DNA of 64,000 nt, taken from a virus (taxonomy: Duplodnaviria > Caudoviricetes). The notes beneath the pieces were generated by a model. That model worked only from the letters and a program-made list of their open reading frames with translations. It did not search any database and had not been told where the DNA came from. Numbering within the stretch: position 1 is the stretch's first letter; each line of letters starts with the position of its first letter. The stretch is taken from IMG/VR virus record IMGVR_UViG_3300028833_000053. One strand, given 5' to 3'. Both the position numbers and the translations under genes were made by a program. This document shows, one piece after another, positions 15,338 to 24,429 of this stretch.

Positions 15338-18300
15338 ATGGGAAATAGAACAATCAAAGCCCCAGGTGTAGAGATTATCGAGCACGACCTATCTGGTTAC
15401 ACAACCACCAACTTGGGTACGGGCTGCCTTATCACTGGTTTTGCGCAGAAGGGTGAAGACCTGGTTCCGATGAAGATTACGAATCGTTCCAGCTGGCTTC
15501 TCAACTTCGGCGCTCCTACCAACGAGGCCGAGGAATATTTCTACAACGCTGGTATGGAAGTTCTGAATCAGGGCGGATTCCTTTGGGCCGCGAAGATTCC
15601 TTATTCCAATGACATCGCGGGCATTTATGCCGCTGCGAAGTTCAAGGTTTCGGGCAATTATGGCTTGTATCGCAAGAGCAAGGAAAGTGGCAAGTACATT
15701 GAAGATGAATTGGATGCAGATGGAAATGAAATTGCCGCAGGAGGAGAGGATGACACTCTGGTTGCCGCCTACGCCGTTGATGGCTCACTTGGACGTTTCT
15801 GCAGGAACTACCGTTCTCTCAAGGAACTTGGCATCAACCACCTTCAGCTTATTGCTCCAGCTGGAAACGAATTCATTTCCAATGATTTGGTTGAGGAATA
15901 TGAGACTGGCGAATCCGAGCCGGGTTCAAATACAATCTATTTGGTTGACAAGACCAGGGCAATCTACACAAGAACCACGGAAATTTCTGACAAGCAGGAC
16001 AACCGCGACTCACGTTATTGCATTGGCATTGTGCCTGTGTTGACAACTCTTTGCAACACCGCGTATTTCCAAAGCAAGTCCACTGGGGTTGTGGCCGACG
16101 TTCCAGAGTTGTATCAGCCCGTGCGTTCGCTCAAGACCATCACGTTCCCTGCAGGCGCCGCTTCCGATGCTGAATATCAGCCAACGAAGTTCACGAAGGA
16201 CGATCTTCACACGCCTTTGATGAAGGAAGCCAACGTGTTTGAGACTTCCCTTTCCGAAAGGGCGGCTATGATTGGTCAAAGCTGCCTGGTGAACGGCAAC
16301 CTCGTTGATGGCAAGTTCAAGCCTTATGTTTGCAATGACGTTTGCGTTGTTGTGTTCAAGGCTTTTGTCTCCACTGAGGATGGCAAGATTGAGTTTGAGC
16401 CCGTTGAGACGTTCGTTGGTTCTCTTGATCCAAAGGGGCGCAACGAGAAGGGCTTGACGACGTTCATCGACACCATCATCAACAACAACTCCGAGTACAT
16501 CTACTGCTTCTCCAACCTTGAGAATCCAGAGAAGGTGTTGAACCCAGATCACGGTTTTGTGGTTGGTTCCGACAGCGAGTATGGTGAAATCGAGGGGGAT
16601 TTGAAAGATACCGACGAGTATATGGCCGCAACTGAATTTTCAGCATATGCAGCTCAAATGCTCGGCTTCGATCCCGATCAAGAAAGTGAAGAAGGGATTG
16701 CTTCTGCATTGAAAAAATATTACAATCAGGATGCCAAGGCTCAGGTTTGCGTACTAGATGAATTGGTAATGGGAGGTAACAAGAATCCAACTTGGATTGC
16801 AAAGCATTTGTGTCCATATGACACTAATACTACGGACACCCAGGAATACGGTAACTATTCATCAGCAATGAACCTTCTTGATACAAACGATGTAACGAAG
16901 AAGTGTATGACTGGGTATATGCACATTCCAGAAAAGTTCATTGTTCAGGAACCCACGATTTCCTATACAATCACACCGAAGGATGACAAGACCTCTACCG
17001 CAGAGGTGAAGGGAGATATTGGAATTGTTATTACACGCAAGGATGACATTACGGATGATGATAAGAAGTATCTTATCGAGTCCTATAAATATTCCTTGAA
17101 CATAGGTGTGCCAACTGACGACGAGGATAAATATCGCCTTAATTGCATTGAGGGAATGGACTTGGGTTCATTGAATATTTTGAATTCAACTGACTATATA
17201 CGTGCCATTCTTAACTTTGAGGAATTGATTGACTTGAAGGACTTGAGCAAGGAAATTGATCCAAGTGGCACTCCTGCAACCGAAGTTACTACGGTAATGA
17301 AGAAAAAGGCAATCCAAGCTCTCATTCTCAGTTCCATAGAGAAGAGTGGAAGGTTCAAGATTCGTTTGCGCAATCTTAAGAAGTCAAAGATAAACCTTGA
17401 CAAACTTGAGGAAAAGTTTAAGAATTATTGGACGAATTATACTGATAATGATAAACGAGAGGCTAGTGATGAAGCAAAGTACATCAAGGACTTGTACAAT
17501 TCCTACTTCGAGACTGGACTTCTTTCCGGAATCTTCTTCGTGCATGATAACACAAACGAGAAGAAGACGCGCGGTGCGTTCCTTGAGAAGGATGCCTTGG
17601 AGAAGAAGTTGGATGATATTGTGAACGTCACTTCCCGTGATGGTGAAGGGGGAGAAGGTGGAGAAGGTGAAGGCTCCAAGGAGGGTGAACCAACCAAGGA
17701 TGGTGAACTCACCAATGAAACCTGCTACAGGTACTTGAAGCTCAAGGCATATCTCAACTCAGTGTACTACAAGAACGAAGCATCAATGCTTGAGGCACTT
17801 GCCAAGATCCTGGAAGATTGCGCCTATGCCCAGAAGCGTTATGTTGAGTCCCAGAGGAACATCGACGACTCCAACATCATGCTTGGTTTCTATCCTGAAA
17901 TGGCTGAGCCAATCATCACCTACACCACAATCGCGCAGTCCTTGAACAAGATATTCGACACCATGTCGGACATCCACACTTCTGACATTGACGTGGTTTG
18001 CGACGCCGGTATCTCCAATATTGCGCAGTTCGTGAAGCAGGTCTATGACCCAAGCGCGGACGATGGCGAGGATGTTGGTGGTCTCTACAACCCAGTCAAG
18101 TACAGCTCGTACTTCAAGTTCAACAAGAACACGGACTTGGCGTATTGGAAGACCATCATCTACAAGTACGATACCTTCTGCAAGTTCCGCGGCGACTGCA
18201 TGTTCTGCGCCGACGGTCCTCGTGGAATGGTCTTGATTGGAAACAAGCAGGTGGTGCGCAAGACCAAGAAGGACACTTCCGTTGACCTCAACATCTTGCC

Positions 18301-18967
18301 ATACTTGAGCAAGATTGCCGGCATCAACACGTCCTATGGCGCGGGCTACCTCAACTGGTACCGCACGATTTCCGACTACACCGGAGACACGTTGTGGGTG
18401 CCGCCGTCCATCAAGGCTATGGGTACTTACATCCTCACGGACAAGCAGTACAACTGGTGGGATGCTCCCGCAGGTATGCGCCGCGGCGTTATCAACATGG
18501 TGGAAACCTCCTTCAACCCAACAAGGTTGCAGGCTGGTGAAATCTACGATGTGAACTGGAACTACGCCATCCACTACATCAACGATGGTATCATCCAGGA
18601 AGGTCAAAAGACGTTCCAGACGAGGCAGAGTGCGCTTGACCGCGTCAACGTGCGCCGTCTCATCGGACGTATCAAGAGGTATGTGTACTTCGCGTCCCGC
18701 CAGTTCCTCTACGAGGCACATACAAAGGCAATGCGCGAGAAGTACGTCAAGACCCTTGAGCCGTTCTTCCAGGATTTGGTCAACCGAGGTGGTCTTTACG
18801 ACTTCAAGATCATCTGCGATGCGACCAACAACACGCCCGAGGTCATTGACCGCAACGAGCTCCGCGTCAAGATTGGCATCAAGCCCGTCAAGACCATCGA
18901 GTTCATCATCATCGACCTCTGCGTCCTCAACACGGGCGCAAGCTGGACGGAAATGGATGCCGTCTGA
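15338..18967 (+). CDS. Tail sheath protein (T4 gp18-like) with a large central insertion
   Basis: IKAPGVEIIEHDLS N-terminus; C-terminal WVPPS...WWDAPAGMRRG...GQKT...SALDRVNVRRL...CDATNNTPEVIDRNEL...KPVKTIEFI. Confidence 0.93.
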   Translation: MGNRTIKAPGVEIIEHDLSGYTTTNLGTGCLITGFAQKGEDLVPMKITNRSSWLLNFGAPTNEAEEYFYNAGMEVLNQGGFLWAAKIPYSNDIAGIYAAAKFKVSGNYGLYRKSKESGKYIEDELDADGNEIAAGGEDDTLVAAYAVDGSLGRFCRNYRSLKELGINHLQLIAPAGNEFISNDLVEEYETGESEPGSNTIYLVDKTRAIYTRTTEISDKQDNRDSRYCIGIVPVLTTLCNTAYFQSKSTGVVADVPELYQPVRSLKTITFPAGAASDAEYQPTKFTKDDLHTPLMKEANVFETSLSERAAMIGQSCLVNGNLVDGKFKPYVCNDVCVVVFKAFVSTEDGKIEFEPVETFVGSLDPKGRNEKGLTTFIDTIINNNSEYIYCFSNLENPEKVLNPDHGFVVGSDSEYGEIEGDLKDTDEYMAATEFSAYAAQMLGFDPDQESEEGIASALKKYYNQDAKAQVCVLDELVMGGNKNPTWIAKHLCPYDTNTTDTQEYGNYSSAMNLLDTNDVTKKCMTGYMHIPEKFIVQEPTISYTITPKDDKTSTAEVKGDIGIVITRKDDITDDDKKYLIESYKYSLNIGVPTDDEDKYRLNCIEGMDLGSLNILNSTDYIRAILNFEELIDLKDLSKEIDPSGTPATEVTTVMKKKAIQALILSSIEKSGRFKIRLRNLKKSKINLDKLEEKFKNYWTNYTDNDKREASDEAKYIKDLYNSYFETGLLSGIFFVHDNTNEKKTRGAFLEKDALEKKLDDIVNVTSRDGEGGEGGEGEGSKEGEPTKDGELTNETCYRYLKLKAYLNSVYYKNEASMLEALAKILEDCAYAQKRYVESQRNIDDSNIMLGFYPEMAEPIITYTTIAQSLNKIFDTMSDIHTSDIDVVCDAGISNIAQFVKQVYDPSADDGEDVGGLYNPVKYSSYFKFNKNTDLAYWKTIIYKYDTFCKFRGDCMFCADGPRGMVLIGNKQVVRKTKKDTSVDLNILPYLSKIAGINTSYGAGYLNWYRTISDYTGDTLWVPPSIKAMGTYILTDKQYNWWDAPAGMRRGVINMVETSFNPTRLQAGEIYDVNWNYAIHYINDGIIQEGQKTFQTRQSALDRVNVRRLIGRIKRYVYFASRQFLYEAHTKAMREKYVKTLEPFFQDLVNRGGLYDFKIICDATNNTPEVIDRNELRVKIGIKPVKTIEFIIIDLCVLNTGASWTEMDAV

Positions 18968-19399: not shown

Positions 19400-20224
19400 T
19401 CAATCCTCCTTGTATTCAGGTTCAGGCATGTAGAACATGTCCTTGCCAAGGAACTGGTCAGGTCCGCGGCGCTTGAATTCCGTTGCCTCCATGCGATTCT
19501 GGATTTTCTCATAAGTTCCATCATTGGGGAAGTCCGCCTCGCCATTGGGAAGATAGGGGGCGCGGATGCAGCGGTCAAGCCAATCGTAGCTGAACCCAAT
19601 CTTGTCCTCGTCCGTCTTTCCAGTCAAACCATCCGACGGAACCTTCTCCACAAGGTCTTTCGGAATCTCGTCCATCGTCAAGCCAATGGCAACCACCTCG
19701 TTCTTTGTGAGGTTGATGAGTGGCTTCATGTCGCCGCATTCGTCTCCCCAGCGCGTGAAGTAGCCGGTAAGGCATTCCGAGAGGTTGCTGGTGTTGATGA
19801 CACGTCCGCCAACCGTCTGACTGACAGCATAGAGCGTTGTCATGCGCAGACGTGGCGCGATGTTGATTGTGGTCTGTTCCGACAACTGCGTGTAGTTGTA
19901 CCAGCCCTTTAACGCCCAGAGAACGTTGTTGGCAACGCCCTGGTATGCGTCATTGATGTTGACGGTGATGTTCTGGATTCCAAGTGCCTCGCAGACCTTG
20001 AACGAATCGTCAATGTCTTTCTGCTCCCCATTCGGCATGAGAACGCCAAGAACGCGCTCCTTGCCAATTGCCCTTGCGCAAAGCGCGGCAACAATCGTGG
20101 AGTCCTTTCCTCCCGAAATGCCAATCACCGCCCTGCTTGTCGGACCGTTCTTCTCAAACCAGTCCTTAATCCATTGAACCAGATTGTCCCTGGTCTTTTC
20201 TGCATTGAAGTAATTCATGTTCAT
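19400..20224 (-). CDS. nadE: NH3-dependent NAD+ synthetase
   Basis: ISGGKDS, NIAPRLRMTTLY, NTSNLSE, GYFTRWGD, PSDGL...TDED; no glutaminase domain. Confidence 0.93.
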   Translation of the reverse strand: MNMNYFNAEKTRDNLVQWIKDWFEKNGPTSRAVIGISGGKDSTIVAALCARAIGKERVLGVLMPNGEQKDIDDSFKVCEALGIQNITVNINDAYQGVANNVLWALKGWYNYTQLSEQTTINIAPRLRMTTLYAVSQTVGGRVINTSNLSECLTGYFTRWGDECGDMKPLINLTKNEVVAIGLTMDEIPKDLVEKVPSDGLTGKTDEDKIGFSYDWLDRCIRAPYLPNGEADFPNDGTYEKIQNRMEATEFKRRGPDQFLGKDMFYMPEPEYKED

Positions 20225-20225
20225 T

Positions 20226-21263
20226 TTAGTTTGTCTCCTTTGTCCAATTTGTTTTCCACTTTCTGTCCTGGTTTGGAAATGGGCTACTGCCACGTTCAAT
20301 CCAGGTTTCAACTTTCAATTCATATCCTCTTTTAACCATTGACACAACGAAGTCAATTTCATTCATGATTCCGTATGCCAATCCATTTGCCAATTCCTGT
20401 TCAACATCCATTTTTCAGATTTCCTTTGTATGCACGATGAACTGGAACACCTCTCCGATGTGTTTGAAATACTTGTCCCGGTTGTCAGGATTGTCGTTGC
20501 GGTACGTTGTGAAGGGAATTTCCTTGTCCCCAAGGAACACCAACTGGATGTAGTCGGTGTTGGGCTTGAACTCCCAAAGTCCGTCCGTGTCGTACTGGTA
20601 CGCCTCATCCGGGAACTTCTCCCCAACGTGGAAGATTGTGGCGTAGCACAGGAACCCGCTTCTCTGCCCGCGCAATTTGCTGTAGTCATGGTTGAACATC
20701 ACTATGTGGTCGCTATTCATTTCAGTTTCTCCTCGTCTTTTTTGGATTTCATTCCGATTTGCTTTTAGAATTGCATCACATATTATCTCGCCAATATCAA
20801 TGCCATATCTCTCCTCAAAATATTCATCAAGTTCGGTTGACCAAACTGACTCCAATTTGTTTTCCATTTCAGCTTCTCCCTCTTTTTGTCGGTGGTCGTT
20901 CCATTTTCCTTCCACATCCAGGGCAATACCTGTACTTCTCGTGAAAGGTCTTGATTTTCTCCTTCGCCTCGTTGGTGGAATTCCAATCCGTGTACTCGTT
21001 GAATCCGCAATTTGAGCAGGTGGCATACTCGTATTCAATGGACTCCCAATGCGCTATTGGGGTATAGTTGTCGTTGTCCATTTCAGTTTCCTCAGTTATG
21101 GGAGAATTATTGAGTCGCTTGCGTCAGCAATCTCATCTTTGTCCAGCCACAGACCAACACGCACTTTCATATGACCGTCCCCTTCAGGGTCGCACATGAC
21201 GCTGAGACTTGCATGTTGCCTCAGGTATTCCTTGATGGTGTTTTCAAGTTCTTCCTTTTCCAT
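20226..21263 (-). CDS. Run of four to five small hypothetical ORFs (includes a Zn-ribbon ORF at 20869..21081)
   Basis: Closely packed short ORFs between the Nampt-like gene and nadE; CSNCG...CPGCG. Confidence 0.5.
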
Positions 21264-21264
21264 T

Positions 21265-22734
21265 TCACACTCCCTTGTTGATTCTGTCCCGAATTTCGGC
21301 GAAGGTGGTCTTGTTGAGCATCACGCCATCCTTGAACACCGTCTTGAGCGCACTTGCGTTTTCGTTGAGCATCTCCGTGTGTTCGTCCGTCTCAAAGAGG
21401 TTGCCATTGCTGTCGTACTTCACCCAGACGATTCCCTTGTGGCTCTTCTTCAGCTTGCCGGTGTCCGTCTTGGGGTCTTTGTAGATGAAGTGGAACTTGC
21501 CATTCGTCACGCCAGCGCAGGCTTTCTCTGCAACGCCAAAGGTGTCCCGCGTGTTCACAATCAGCTTCTCGTTGTCAAAGATACCCGTGAAGCAGAACGC
21601 GCCAACTCCGAAATAGACGTTGTTCGCCGCGTACTCGTTCTCTTCCATCCACTCCCAAATGCGGCGCACCGTGAAGAGGGTGCATCCATCGCCAAGGATG
21701 ATTCGGATGTGGTTGTCAAGGACGCGGTAGCCCTTCTCGTTCCAGTAGCCCCCAAAGGTATTCCAAAGCGAATCCAGGGTTTTCGTCACAACCTCAAACT
21801 GGTCTCCGGAGTCCGGACGCACAAGCAGTGTTCCATTGTGCTGGAGGATTTCGCTCTTGAGTGAGGGGATGATGTTCTCCACCAGGTTCCAGTAGTCATA
21901 GGTGTCCGAAACCATGCTGAACGAGGTGTTGGGATAGATTTCCGTGAGCATCCTCTTGATGAACGTGACTTCATCCCCATCAATGGCGTAGTTGCTTGCC
22001 ATCACGCTGTGTTCGGTGCTCACCGCTCCCATGCCAATCTTGTTGTTGGTCACGTCGGCGTCATAGTATTTGTCGATGTAGGGAAGGGCGGGAACGGTGC
22101 TTGTCTTGTCAAAGCAGGTCAGCCACGATGCGCTGCAACGGACGCTCTCGTTCACGCAGCTCATTCCACGCATACCAAAGTCTGCCATAGCCTTGCGCGG
22201 GTCTCCGTTGTCAACGGTCTTGTCATAGAACTCCTTTGCAAGGTCAAGGTACATCTTGGAAATTGTGGCATGGTTGCATGTCTTCCAGAGTTCCGCCTGA
22301 AGTATGCACTCCACCCATTGCACAAGCCACGCGAAGTTGTCGTGCGTGTTCGTCACCTCAATGCAGGGGATGCCCATGTTCACCGAAGTCCCCTCAGGGA
22401 TTGCGCGAATCTGCAGGGGCAGATAACCAAGCCTGTGAAGGTCAATGATGTTCGTGGTGGCGTAGCCGCCCTGTGGCAGTTGAACCTTCATGTACTTCTC
22501 GTACTCCGCAATCACATCGTTGATTTCGCGGTCAAAGAAGTTCTTCTTGAAGTAGTCCACAAGGAACTCTTGGATGAACGCCTGAAGTCCGAAGAACACC
22601 ATCTTGTCGCAGGTCTTCAACATGGATTTGCGCGGCGTCCAATACGAATACAGCTTGGTAAGTCCCGGCGCGTACTGGAGCGGGTGGCAGAACTTGTAGG
22701 TGTCGGCCAGAAGCATTGCGTTTGTGTCAATCAT
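21265..22734 (-). CDS. Nampt/NadV-family phosphoribosyltransferase (Namat-like); predicted nicotinate-preferring
   Basis: ADTYK, DFGMRG, TEHSVM, VSDTYD, VRPDSGD, ILGDG, RDTFG, KDPKTD...KKS.KG; FDKTST in place of Nampt FxGTDT. Confidence 0.9.
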   Translation of the reverse strand: MIDTNAMLLADTYKFCHPLQYAPGLTKLYSYWTPRKSMLKTCDKMVFFGLQAFIQEFLVDYFKKNFFDREINDVIAEYEKYMKVQLPQGGYATTNIIDLHRLGYLPLQIRAIPEGTSVNMGIPCIEVTNTHDNFAWLVQWVECILQAELWKTCNHATISKMYLDLAKEFYDKTVDNGDPRKAMADFGMRGMSCVNESVRCSASWLTCFDKTSTVPALPYIDKYYDADVTNNKIGMGAVSTEHSVMASNYAIDGDEVTFIKRMLTEIYPNTSFSMVSDTYDYWNLVENIIPSLKSEILQHNGTLLVRPDSGDQFEVVTKTLDSLWNTFGGYWNEKGYRVLDNHIRIILGDGCTLFTVRRIWEWMEENEYAANNVYFGVGAFCFTGIFDNEKLIVNTRDTFGVAEKACAGVTNGKFHFIYKDPKTDTGKLKKSHKGIVWVKYDSNGNLFETDEHTEMLNENASALKTVFKDGVMLNKTTFAEIRDRINKGV

Positions 22735-22967: not shown

Positions 22968-23795
22968 TCAAAACTCCCTCACAATCTTGATCTTGTGGCT
23001 TGCCACGCCCCGGAAAATCGAGTTGGTGGCGTAGATGGTCTTGATGAGGTCGCCCTGAATCAGCTTGCCCTTCTCCTTGTCCATCACCGAGTTTTCAAGG
23101 TGGGTGACATAGCAGGAGATTTCGTTCGCTCCCAAGTCCTTCAACTTGCAGGCCGAGTAGTAGAAGGTTCCGCCATAGGCGCAGATGTCATCCACCATCA
23201 GAATGTTCTTGCCCTTCACTTCGTCATAGCCCGCAAGTTCAATCCCCTCAATCTTGCCAGTTTTCCAATCGCGCTTCTTGATGCCAAACGCAACTGGAAG
23301 CCCAAGGTCTTTGAGAATTTCGCTATACCGCTTGCAGGCTCCCTCGTCCGGGAAGAAGAGAACGTCAATCTTGCTCAGCGAGGTCTGGAGGATGCGCTTG
23401 ACATCTCCATATACGCATTCAAAGTCCACATACACCCGGTCAAACAACGCCTCGCTGACCGTGCTATGGGGATTGGAAATGCGAACCTCCTCAAACCCAA
23501 GCCAGTTGATTGTGTCGGCAAACGCCTTGAGAGTGAACACCTCGTCAGAGTTCTTCACCCTGTCCATCCGTGCGTTGGGGACATAGGGAAGGTTCAGCCA
23601 GACCTTGCATCCCTTGTTCTTGAGATGCTTCGTGAGCGCAATCAATTGGAACAGCTCTTCGTCATTGTCATAGAGCCAGGTGATGGTGTACTCTTCGCGC
23701 CTCGGGTCAAACTTCAGAAGTTTCGTCCCATCGGGGAACGCCGTGGGCTTCAGAATCTCCTCTTCAGGAGCAATGTTGCTGTCAATTCTAATCAT
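22968..23795 (-). CDS. Ribose-phosphate pyrophosphokinase family protein (Adps-like)
   Basis: FPDG, PYVPNARMDR, NPHS, FPDEGA, KKRDWKTG, VDDICAYGGTF; phage-type Prs next to a Nampt-like gene. Confidence 0.88.
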   Translation of the reverse strand: MIRIDSNIAPEEEILKPTAFPDGTKLLKFDPRREEYTITWLYDNDEELFQLIALTKHLKNKGCKVWLNLPYVPNARMDRVKNSDEVFTLKAFADTINWLGFEEVRISNPHSTVSEALFDRVYVDFECVYGDVKRILQTSLSKIDVLFFPDEGACKRYSEILKDLGLPVAFGIKKRDWKTGKIEGIELAGYDEVKGKNILMVDDICAYGGTFYYSACKLKDLGANEISCYVTHLENSVMDKEKGKLIQGDLIKTIYATNSIFRGVASHKIKIVREF

Positions 23796-23827
23796 AGGGT
23801 TTTTGCCTTTCTTGGGTTGATGGCAAC

Positions 23828-23856
23828 AGTATATCATATCAGATTCCCGTTGTCAA
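23828..23856 (-). promoter_or_regulatory. Sigma70-type promoter before the prs-like gene
   Basis: TTGACA-N17-TATACT on the minus strand. Confidence 0.8.
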
Positions 23857-23874: not shown

Positions 23875-24429
23875 TCAAATTACATCAATCTGGCACATTT
23901 TCATGGTCAGAAGGGCGGCTTTGTTGCTTTCGGGGGTCACTCCTGCCACGCAGTCCTTGCGTACCGTGATTTTGCTGTTGGGAAAGTTGGCGCGTAGCAT
24001 AAGGGCGTTTGAGACAACGCAGATGTCTGTGCAGAATCCAACGATTGTGAATTCATAGTCGGTCTCAAAGGTGGTGATGCCATTCCACTGGCAGTTTGCT
24101 TTTATGTGGTCGATGAGCCAGGTTGAGCCAAATGTAGGCTTCTCGAAGATTTCGGCCTTTGCCTTGCGGAGAAGTGTTTCAACCTCTTCGGGTATTTTCC
24201 ATCCATGGGTGCAGTAAATGCAATGTTCAACTGGAAGTTTCTGCCCCTCAAGGGTTTTCAGATAGTCCTTGCCGTGGGTGTCCATCGTAACATAGGTTTC
24301 ATTGTACTTCTCAGTCTTGAGCAGTTTGACGATGTTGGGCAATGCCTTGATTGCCTCTTCGTTGCGCAATGCGCCTGTGATGAAGTCGTTTTGGACATCT
24401 ATCACAATCAGTATCTTCTTCGTAGCCAT
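23875..24429 (-). CDS. pncA: Nicotinamidase (isochorismatase family)
   Basis: IDVQNDF, DTH, HC...GW, KPTFGS, GFCTDICV catalytic motifs; NAD-salvage context. Confidence 0.85.
   Translation of the reverse strand: MATKKILIVIDVQNDFITGALRNEEAIKALPNIVKLLKTEKYNETYVTMDTHGKDYLKTLEGQKLPVEHCIYCTHGWKIPEEVETLLRKAKAEIFEKPTFGSTWLIDHIKANCQWNGITTFETDYEFTIVGFCTDICVVSNALMLRANFPNSKITVRKDCVAGVTPESNKAALLTMKMCQIDVI

Follow-up and report, generated by a model that had tools for sequence, protein, structure and literature searches.

Depletion of NAD+ is a major bacterial strategy against phages, and phage counter-pathways, designated NARP1, NARP2 and NARP3, are known. The analysis described here concerns a 64,000-nt stretch of DNA (the window) from a giant gut phage, whose virus record (IMGVR_UViG_3300028833_000053) is complete, with a length of 433,895 bp and direct repeats at its termini, and in particular the gene of a 489-amino-acid (aa) transferase related to Namat and Nampt, referred to as P0001 (21265..22734, minus strand). 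The data suggest that P0001 could be a nicotinate-specific enzyme of the Namat lineage serving in a deamidated form of NARP1, in which nicotinate and ADP-ribose pyrophosphate (ADPR-PP) would be combined into nicotinic acid adenine dinucleotide (NaAD); we put the probability of this reading at about one half. In the proposed pathway, nicotinamide would be converted to nicotinate by a PncA-like enzyme, ADP-ribose would be pyrophosphorylated to ADPR-PP by an Adps-like enzyme, P0001 would form NaAD and pyrophosphate from nicotinate and ADPR-PP, and NadE would amidate NaAD to NAD+. Both products of NADase defenses would in this way be built back into NAD+, with no adenylyltransferase needed. Two coupled pocket changes would adapt P0001 from an amide to a carboxylate substrate. 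The residue identities, gene families, clade structure and gene linkage on which this reading draws were established directly.

The preliminary description of this DNA had proposed that Ser212, encoded by an AGC codon at 22099..22101 (minus strand), replaces the Asp of Nampt enzymes, while the stacking Tyr of the DTYK motif and the stacking Phe of the DFG motif are retained. The alignments made with HMMER agree with this placement. The segment WLTCFDKTSTVPAL (P0001 residues 204-217, positions 22084-22125) includes the sequence cfdktstvpal, and its gap-free counterpart in SPbetaL1 Namat (9w5x) is sftgtdtipai. Since the residues of this structure are numbered as in the native protein, Ser212 of P0001 corresponds to Asp215 of Namat. 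The same sequence also aligned to nflgtdtlsal of Xanthomonas Nampt (7yqo), with Ser212 on the Asp of the GTDT motif. Because the offset between P0001 and Namat numbering is constant at +3 from Phe186/Phe189 through His242/His245, with no indel between these points, the equivalence of Ser212 and Asp215 is independent of gap placement. The common GTDT motif and the published papers place Ser212 at the position of Asp219 of human NAMPT as well. The other residues kept in P0001 are Asp11, Tyr13 (in DTYK), Phe186 and Arg189 (in DFGMRG), the catalytic His242, Arg306 and Asp308, and thus both stacking residues are present. Ser212 is no chance feature, since the 120 nearest protein clusters, with identities of 59% or more, have Lys-Thr-Ser at positions 210-212 without exception.

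The nicotinamide pocket of Namat consists of Phe189, Arg192, Asp215, Ala242, Arg306, Asp13′ and Tyr15′ (PMC12774641). Five of these seven residues are kept in P0001, and the two that differ are Asp215, replaced by Ser212, and Ala242, replaced by Ser239 (codon 22018..22020, minus strand). Asp215 of Namat hydrogen-bonds nicotinamide, and the D215A mutation lowers NAD+ formation from nicotinamide 8.1-fold. The specificity of human NAMPT is defined by Asp219, which hydrogen-bonds the amide, while human NAPRT has Ser214 at this position. Hence, the earlier claims that this Asp selects the amide and that nicotinate phosphoribosyltransferases have Ser in its place are consistent with the literature, and Ser212 matches a feature of NAPRT and PncB, a small neutral residue at the NAMPT Asp219 position. 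The comparison of related sequences showed that the Asp215 site is Asp or Glu in 91 of 91 sequences of the sister clade, while it is Ala, Ser or Val in 53 of 53 sequences of the P0001 clade. A scan for clade-specific columns defined the second coupled switch, as the Ala242 site is Ala in all 91 acidic-type sequences and Ser in 52 of the 53 of non-acidic type. Further clade-specific changes in or near the pocket sequence are those of His207 to Trp or Phe, Ser239 of Namat to Gly236, Gln185 to Ala, and Arg299 to His. The loss of the acid and the change of Ala242, together with the gene linkage described below, make it likely that P0001 is specific for nicotinate.

The linkage of the pocket residue to neighboring genes was analyzed at 220 loci, almost all of them on viral contigs, in which the neighborhoods were scored with NadE, PncA and Prs/Adps profiles; the loci represent 194 unique genes. 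Neither nadE nor pncA was found beside any of the 99 unique genes of the Asp/Glu type, 96 of which have a Prs-like neighbor, while the Ser type (74 unique genes) is accompanied by nadE in 69 cases and by pncA in 72, and the Ala type (21 unique genes) by nadE in 20 and by pncA in all 21. The five Ser-type loci without nadE stop short of the position where their relatives carry it, and a 258-kb phage contig otherwise without pncA contains a 36-residue pncA remnant just upstream of the Prs-like gene (L005:7050-7157). In the cluster of the latter contig a NADAR gene is located between the transferase gene and nadE. Both nadE and pncA were absent beside twelve bacterial Asp-type loci and beside those of Lak-C1 and a Kolpuevirus (Glu type), and a single-protein scan of a genome collection recovered only Asp-type bacterial NARP1 loci. 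Of six divergent non-acidic clusters inspected individually, P0134, P0163, P0141 and P0180 all have isochorismatase/pncA, Prs-like and NAD synthase genes; P0189, located on a short contig, has nadE and a Prs-like gene, and pncA was not seen on that contig; the sixth, P0264, is an exception taken up below. The gene order varies, and therefore the linkage has survived rearrangements: in L001, L116 and L121, pncA follows nadE, and in L015 it is the Prs-like gene that is located downstream. One bacterial-looking operon (L139:128-4614), which adjoins a chemoreceptor gene, contains genes for an NrtR-type winged helix protein, a Prs-like protein, an isochorismatase, an Ala-type Namat-like protein and an NAD synthase.

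This linkage bears on two other explanations of the altered pocket. If P0001 were an ordinary nicotinamide-using Namat that merely tolerates Ser or Ala, with pncA and nadE forming a separate salvage branch through host PncB and NadD, then the residual activity of the D215A mutant, about one-eighth, and the intact state of all other catalytic residues would be accounted for. However, nadE and pncA accompany none of the 99 Asp/Glu genes and about 95% of the 95 non-acidic ones. The two pocket residues were switched together and have stayed constant in a clade of such depth that identity to P0001 is only 36-44%, and a nicotinamidase made alongside such an enzyme would remove the nicotinamide on which it depends, all of which makes this explanation improbable. 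The additional clade-specific changes at His207, Ser239, Gln185 and Arg299 could instead reflect a pocket that accepts some other base, another pyridine or an analogue, so that a non-NAD dinucleotide would be formed. We consider this very improbable, because nicotinate and NaAD fully explain the obligate linkage to NadE and to a nicotinamidase with an intact site.

Two trees, the first of 119 and the second of 144 representatives, were calculated from alignments that lacked the trait columns. In the larger tree the acidic and non-acidic types are divided by a single branch with a Shimodaira-Hasegawa-like approximate likelihood ratio test (SH-aLRT) value of 97. Inside the non-acidic clade, to which 51 of the 150 closest protein clusters at 50% identity belong, Ser and Ala were exchanged at least four times, and Ala is both the commoner state and the one found in the earliest branches. 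Because of this distribution of Ala, it is the loss of the amide-binding acid, and not Ser as such, that appears as the feature of the clade. By the tree topology, the covariation with pncA and nadE is one ancient event that was long retained, rather than a set of independent events, and as the switch from Asp to Ser or Ala maps to one branch, the covariation is statistically inseparable from shared ancestry. Thus, the test suggested earlier, for covariation of Ser with pncA and nadE, was positive for non-acidic residues among the 194 genes, with essentially no exceptions, while Ser itself is not required and the association goes back to one event. Similarly, the earlier proposal of a Nampt-fold enzyme turned to nicotinate is supported by the site and by the gene linkage, but the enzyme falls into the Namat lineage and Ala is also common at the site. 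In a cultured-phage collection, the top one of the 60 best-matching records, which was the only one examined for membership, is an unverified fecal contig of the non-acidic type.

The assignment of P0001 to the Namat lineage is consistent across several kinds of comparison. Its best sequence match in the PDB is Namat (9w5x, E value of 1.5e-100), while the match to human NAMPT is at about 1e-50. The AlphaFold2 model of P0001 (mean pLDDT, the predicted local distance difference score, of 95.5) was compared with solved structures using Foldseek, which ranked Namat first with a template modeling (TM) score of 0.90, followed by Haemophilus ducreyi NadV, with human NAMPT at 0.86-0.87. The protein also matched phrog_448 (2.5e-153) and, above the cut-offs, the Pfam families PF04095 (NAPRTase, 74.5 bits) and PF18127 (NAMPT_N, 39.6 bits). 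It was considered whether P0001 could be an ortholog of PncB, and this was rejected, since the PncB models NF009131 (25.1 bits, cut-off 330) and NF006696 (21.9 bits, cut-off 503) score far below their cut-offs. Judged by these matches, P0001 belongs to the Namat lineage of NARP1 and not to classical Nampt.

The genes of the proposed partners flank P0001 on the same strand. The PncA-like nicotinamidase of the isochorismatase family (184 aa, 23875..24429, minus strand; Pfam Isochorismatase, 6.6e-19) has as its best solved relative the pyrazinamidase/nicotinamidase of Pyrococcus horikoshii (1ilw), and all 75 homologs from the clusters retain the six residues of its Asp-Lys-Cys triad and Asp-His-His metal site; no equivalog model matched this protein. 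The NH3-type NAD synthetase NadE is encoded at 19400..20311 (minus strand), with a likely start at Met30 (20224), and it matched Pfam NAD_synthase (1.2e-51) and the TIGR00552 nadE model, where its 169.6 bits are well above the cut-off (63.65). Its PP-loop SGGxDS is invariant in the cluster homologs. The Prs-like protein, a 289-aa open reading frame (ORF) with a likely start at Met15 (23795), is located at 22968..23837 (minus strand), 233 bases upstream of P0001, and matches phrog_619; nearly all relatives of P0001 likewise have an Adps-like gene close by. This protein is 37% identical to the validated Adps of SPbetaL1 (E value of 5e-41, 130 bits), while its matches to solved canonical PRPP (phosphoribosyl pyrophosphate) synthetases are at 8.7e-18 or weaker, with at most 68 bits. 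The motifs ARMDR, KKRDWKTGKI, DDICxYGGTF and THxENS are common to it and to the Adps proteins of SPbetaL1 and ICP1, but not to Escherichia coli Prs. By similarity and motifs, this protein is a member of the phage Adps clade and not a canonical Prs.

Because P0001 is of the Namat lineage and has an Adps-like partner, its product may be NaAD rather than nicotinic acid mononucleotide (NaMN), and, given specificity for nicotinate, ADPR-PP would probably be the donor. The main rival, which corresponds to the literal reading of the preliminary description, is a Preiss-Handler route, in which the Prs-like protein would make PRPP, P0001 would convert nicotinate and PRPP to NaMN, NaAD would be formed by NadD of the host or, where there is one, by a NadM-like enzyme of the phage, and NadE would complete the synthesis. 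The pocket switches and the linkage to pncA and nadE apply equally to both routes, and P0001 also scores above the cut-off of the NCBIfam model PRK09198, which is named nicotinate phosphoribosyltransferase. On the other hand, the far greater closeness of the Prs-like protein to validated Adps than to PRPP synthetases argues against such a route, as does the observation that SPbetaL1 Adps gave no product in an assay meant for Prs activity. In phages, Adps is paired with Namat, while the PRPP-using Nampt is paired with Nmnat. More than 80 clusters are without an adenylyltransferase, which also speaks against an NaMN intermediate, and no NMNAT was found in the cluster of the window. A strong cytidylyltransferase match in the 434-kb genome was considered as an NMNAT and rejected, because it is TagD-like, of the glycerol-3-phosphate cytidylyltransferase type. 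At L142:1483-3185 (G000:C1, ~262.7-264.4 kb), this TagD-like gene, which has one in-frame TAG, read as Gln, is placed back to back with the gene of a 408-aa protein in which an AAA_28/dNK-like kinase is fused to a NADAR domain.

The accessory genes and the donor-binding residues bear on the same question. Genes inside the clusters include those of macro domains (62 loci), NADAR (35 loci) and Tpt1 (13 loci); the products of these genes handle ADP-ribose, and their presence points to ADP-ribose as the substrate, against the Preiss-Handler route. One accessory protein, of 153 aa, had no Pfam match and was called macro from its PDB sequence matches, which are BT1257, Appr-1-p processing proteins and OARD1. 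No Nudix enzyme that could convert ADP-ribose to ribose 5-phosphate was identified among the recurrent in-cluster accessory groups, where no dedicated Nudix search was made, and this, too, counts against the Preiss-Handler route. The adenine-stacking Phe392 of Namat is kept in 52 of 53 sequences of the clade (Phe380 in P0001) and Arg40 in 42 of 53, and the early-branching members retain the full clamp motif, e.g., GSYTYQYNTRD. Phe392 and Arg40 are dispensable for the PRPP chemistry of Namat, so the conservation of the Phe is a further point against a PRPP-based route. At the Phe392 position the true Nampt of H. ducreyi (NadV) has Gln, and human NAMPT has Gly.

Several observations weigh against the NaAD-forming route proposed here, or at least against parts of it. 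The acid-loss switch has a single origin, which makes a test by independent contrasts impossible, as the trait changes once. The titles of the PDB entries 6ta0 and 6ta2 describe human NAMPT with nicotinic acid and NaMN, and by these titles the Asp is no absolute block to nicotinate. With regard to the donor, Namat is also able to use PRPP in vitro, and this retained activity is what the Preiss-Handler route would require. The clamp has been remodeled in the Ser sub-clade of P0001, which is likewise in favor of that route. The equivalent of the Namat selectivity-clamp helix (residues 376-397; 21544..21609, minus strand) has Ala379 in place of Ser391, and Arg40 is replaced by Met38, although the Namat pattern includes a stacking Arg, Lys or Tyr in the clamp loop. 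The Tyr396 position is Val393, and the HMMER alignment to Namat shows there a 9-residue insertion (residues 384-392; 21559-21585, minus strand), which AlphaFold2 modeled as a β-hairpin. As a result, the P0001 segment reads GAFCFT, GIFDNEKLI and VNTRD where Namat has GSFTYQYNTRD, and of the Namat motif GSX-phi-X-phi-X-phi-TRD it keeps the aromatic residue at position 3 and loses that at position 7.

Candidate adenylyltransferases near some of the clusters also count against the proposed route. In one sub-lineage of the Ser type, comprising 12 loci, nadE is directly followed by a NadM-type NMNAT-like gene. The non-acidic member that branches off first, P0264, is preceded by a NadM-like NMNAT gene (L240:3236-3787) and then by a Prs-like gene. 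These NMNAT-like genes fit with a mononucleotide intermediate, as the Preiss-Handler route predicts. In addition, a nucleotidyltransferase domain with a HIGH motif, with sub-threshold matches to CoaD, NMNAT and NadD models, is present just outside the window. Even with these points considered, the similarity of the Prs-like protein to Adps, the many clusters without an adenylyltransferase and the ADP-ribose-handling accessory genes lead us to regard the Preiss-Handler route as possible but rather unlikely, and the formation of NaAD from nicotinate and ADPR-PP as the preferred reading.

Several details of these neighborhoods were also recorded. The loci with the NMNAT-like gene are L065, L067, L070, L072, L079, L082, L085, L086, L087, L126, L129 and L130; the gene product (e.g., L070:13505-14092) has 196 aa and sub-threshold matches to archaeal NMNAT models, and the clusters of this sub-lineage, which extend over ~10 kb, include Tpt1 and a HAD-like gene as well. 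A 367-aa ORF that begins with MKDIKIVIGANFGDEGKGK is located between pncA and the Prs-like gene at L085:5444-6544 and likewise at 11 related loci, and inspection by eye made it a candidate adenylosuccinate synthetase (PurA/PurZ). The contig of P0264 is bacterial-looking, with PadR, FtsW and EngB-like GTPase genes, and ends ~400 bases past the gene. The HIGH-motif domain (L143:1441-2007; G000:C1:87684-88130) is inside a 679-aa open frame, ~185 bases beyond the first base of the window.

The cluster in the window consists of five co-oriented minus-strand genes, which are the pncA-like gene, the Prs-like gene, P0001, a 101-aa ORF (20415..20720) and nadE. The 101-aa ORF is conserved, as four related loci from megaphages have copies in the corresponding position that are 61-65% identical, and it occupies the slot where relatives have macro or NADAR genes. 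It had no match in Pfam, PHROG or Atlas, and its AlphaFold2 model is of low confidence (pLDDT of 64). No match to the Macro family (PF01661) was found in the 434-kb source genome, and a megablast search of the gene cluster against phage records gave no match. Elsewhere in the window, a 1209-aa tail-sheath protein (15338-18967, plus strand) has a profile match confined to its last ~250 residues, with a long N-terminal extension. Among the representatives P0123-P0271 and the Bacillus and Listeria phage matches H2-H60, many Namat-like genes encode 570-1100 aa with two to four separate matching stretches, as in Tsamsa-like Bacillus phages and Listeria P100, which suggests inteins or other inserted elements.

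In the library that was searched in full text, NARP1, Namat or ADPR-PP was not connected by any paper with nicotinate, NaAD, NadE or PncA. If the proposed reading is true, the cluster would represent a fourth phage route of NAD+ reconstitution, which proceeds via deamidated intermediates and includes an undescribed one-step reaction from nicotinate and ADPR-PP to NaAD. The pathway would then be widespread among uncultured phages, 400-kb megaphages included, with human gut samples as the source of many, and nearly missing from collections of cultured phages. The two pocket residues would also constitute a natural specificity switch in a Nampt-fold enzyme, the human relative of which is a drug target.

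Among the known systems, the Namat of NARP1 (SPbetaL1; 9w5x, 9w5w; PMC12774641) is the best match of P0001 in both sequence and fold. The two share an Adps-like gene neighbor, the core residues Asp13′, Tyr15′, Phe189, Arg192, His245, Arg306 and Asp308, and the adenine-stacking Phe392, while P0001 differs by Ser in place of Asp215 and of Ala242, Met in place of Arg40, Ala in place of Ser391 and the 9-residue insertion, and its operon additionally carries pncA and nadE. NARP1-AP is an extended NARP1 operon, in which Adps and Namat are joined by a third gene encoding a macro-domain Adpp, an ADPR-1′′-phosphate phosphatase (bioRxiv 10.64898/2026.01.28.702374). The clusters of the P0001 relatives resemble it, as they often have a macro-domain gene between the transferase gene and nadE, but the cluster of the window has the 101-aa ORF at the macro slot, and pncA and nadE are foreign to NARP1-AP. 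The published NARP3 is a PnuC/NadR system. The Nampt and NadV enzymes (human NAMPT, H. ducreyi NadV 9ke8, and NARP2 of KVP40) have the same fold as P0001 (TM scores of 0.86-0.89), with the stacking Tyr and Phe and the phospho-His in common; unlike P0001, they have Asp at the specificity site and no clamp aromatic residue, and their phage partner is Nmnat and not a Prs-like protein. NAPRT and PncB are similar to P0001 as type II phosphoribosyltransferases with Ser at the Asp219-equivalent position (Ser214 in human NAPRT) that act between PncA and NadE, but P0001 is not their ortholog, as it has the NAMPT N-terminal domain and nests in the Namat lineage.

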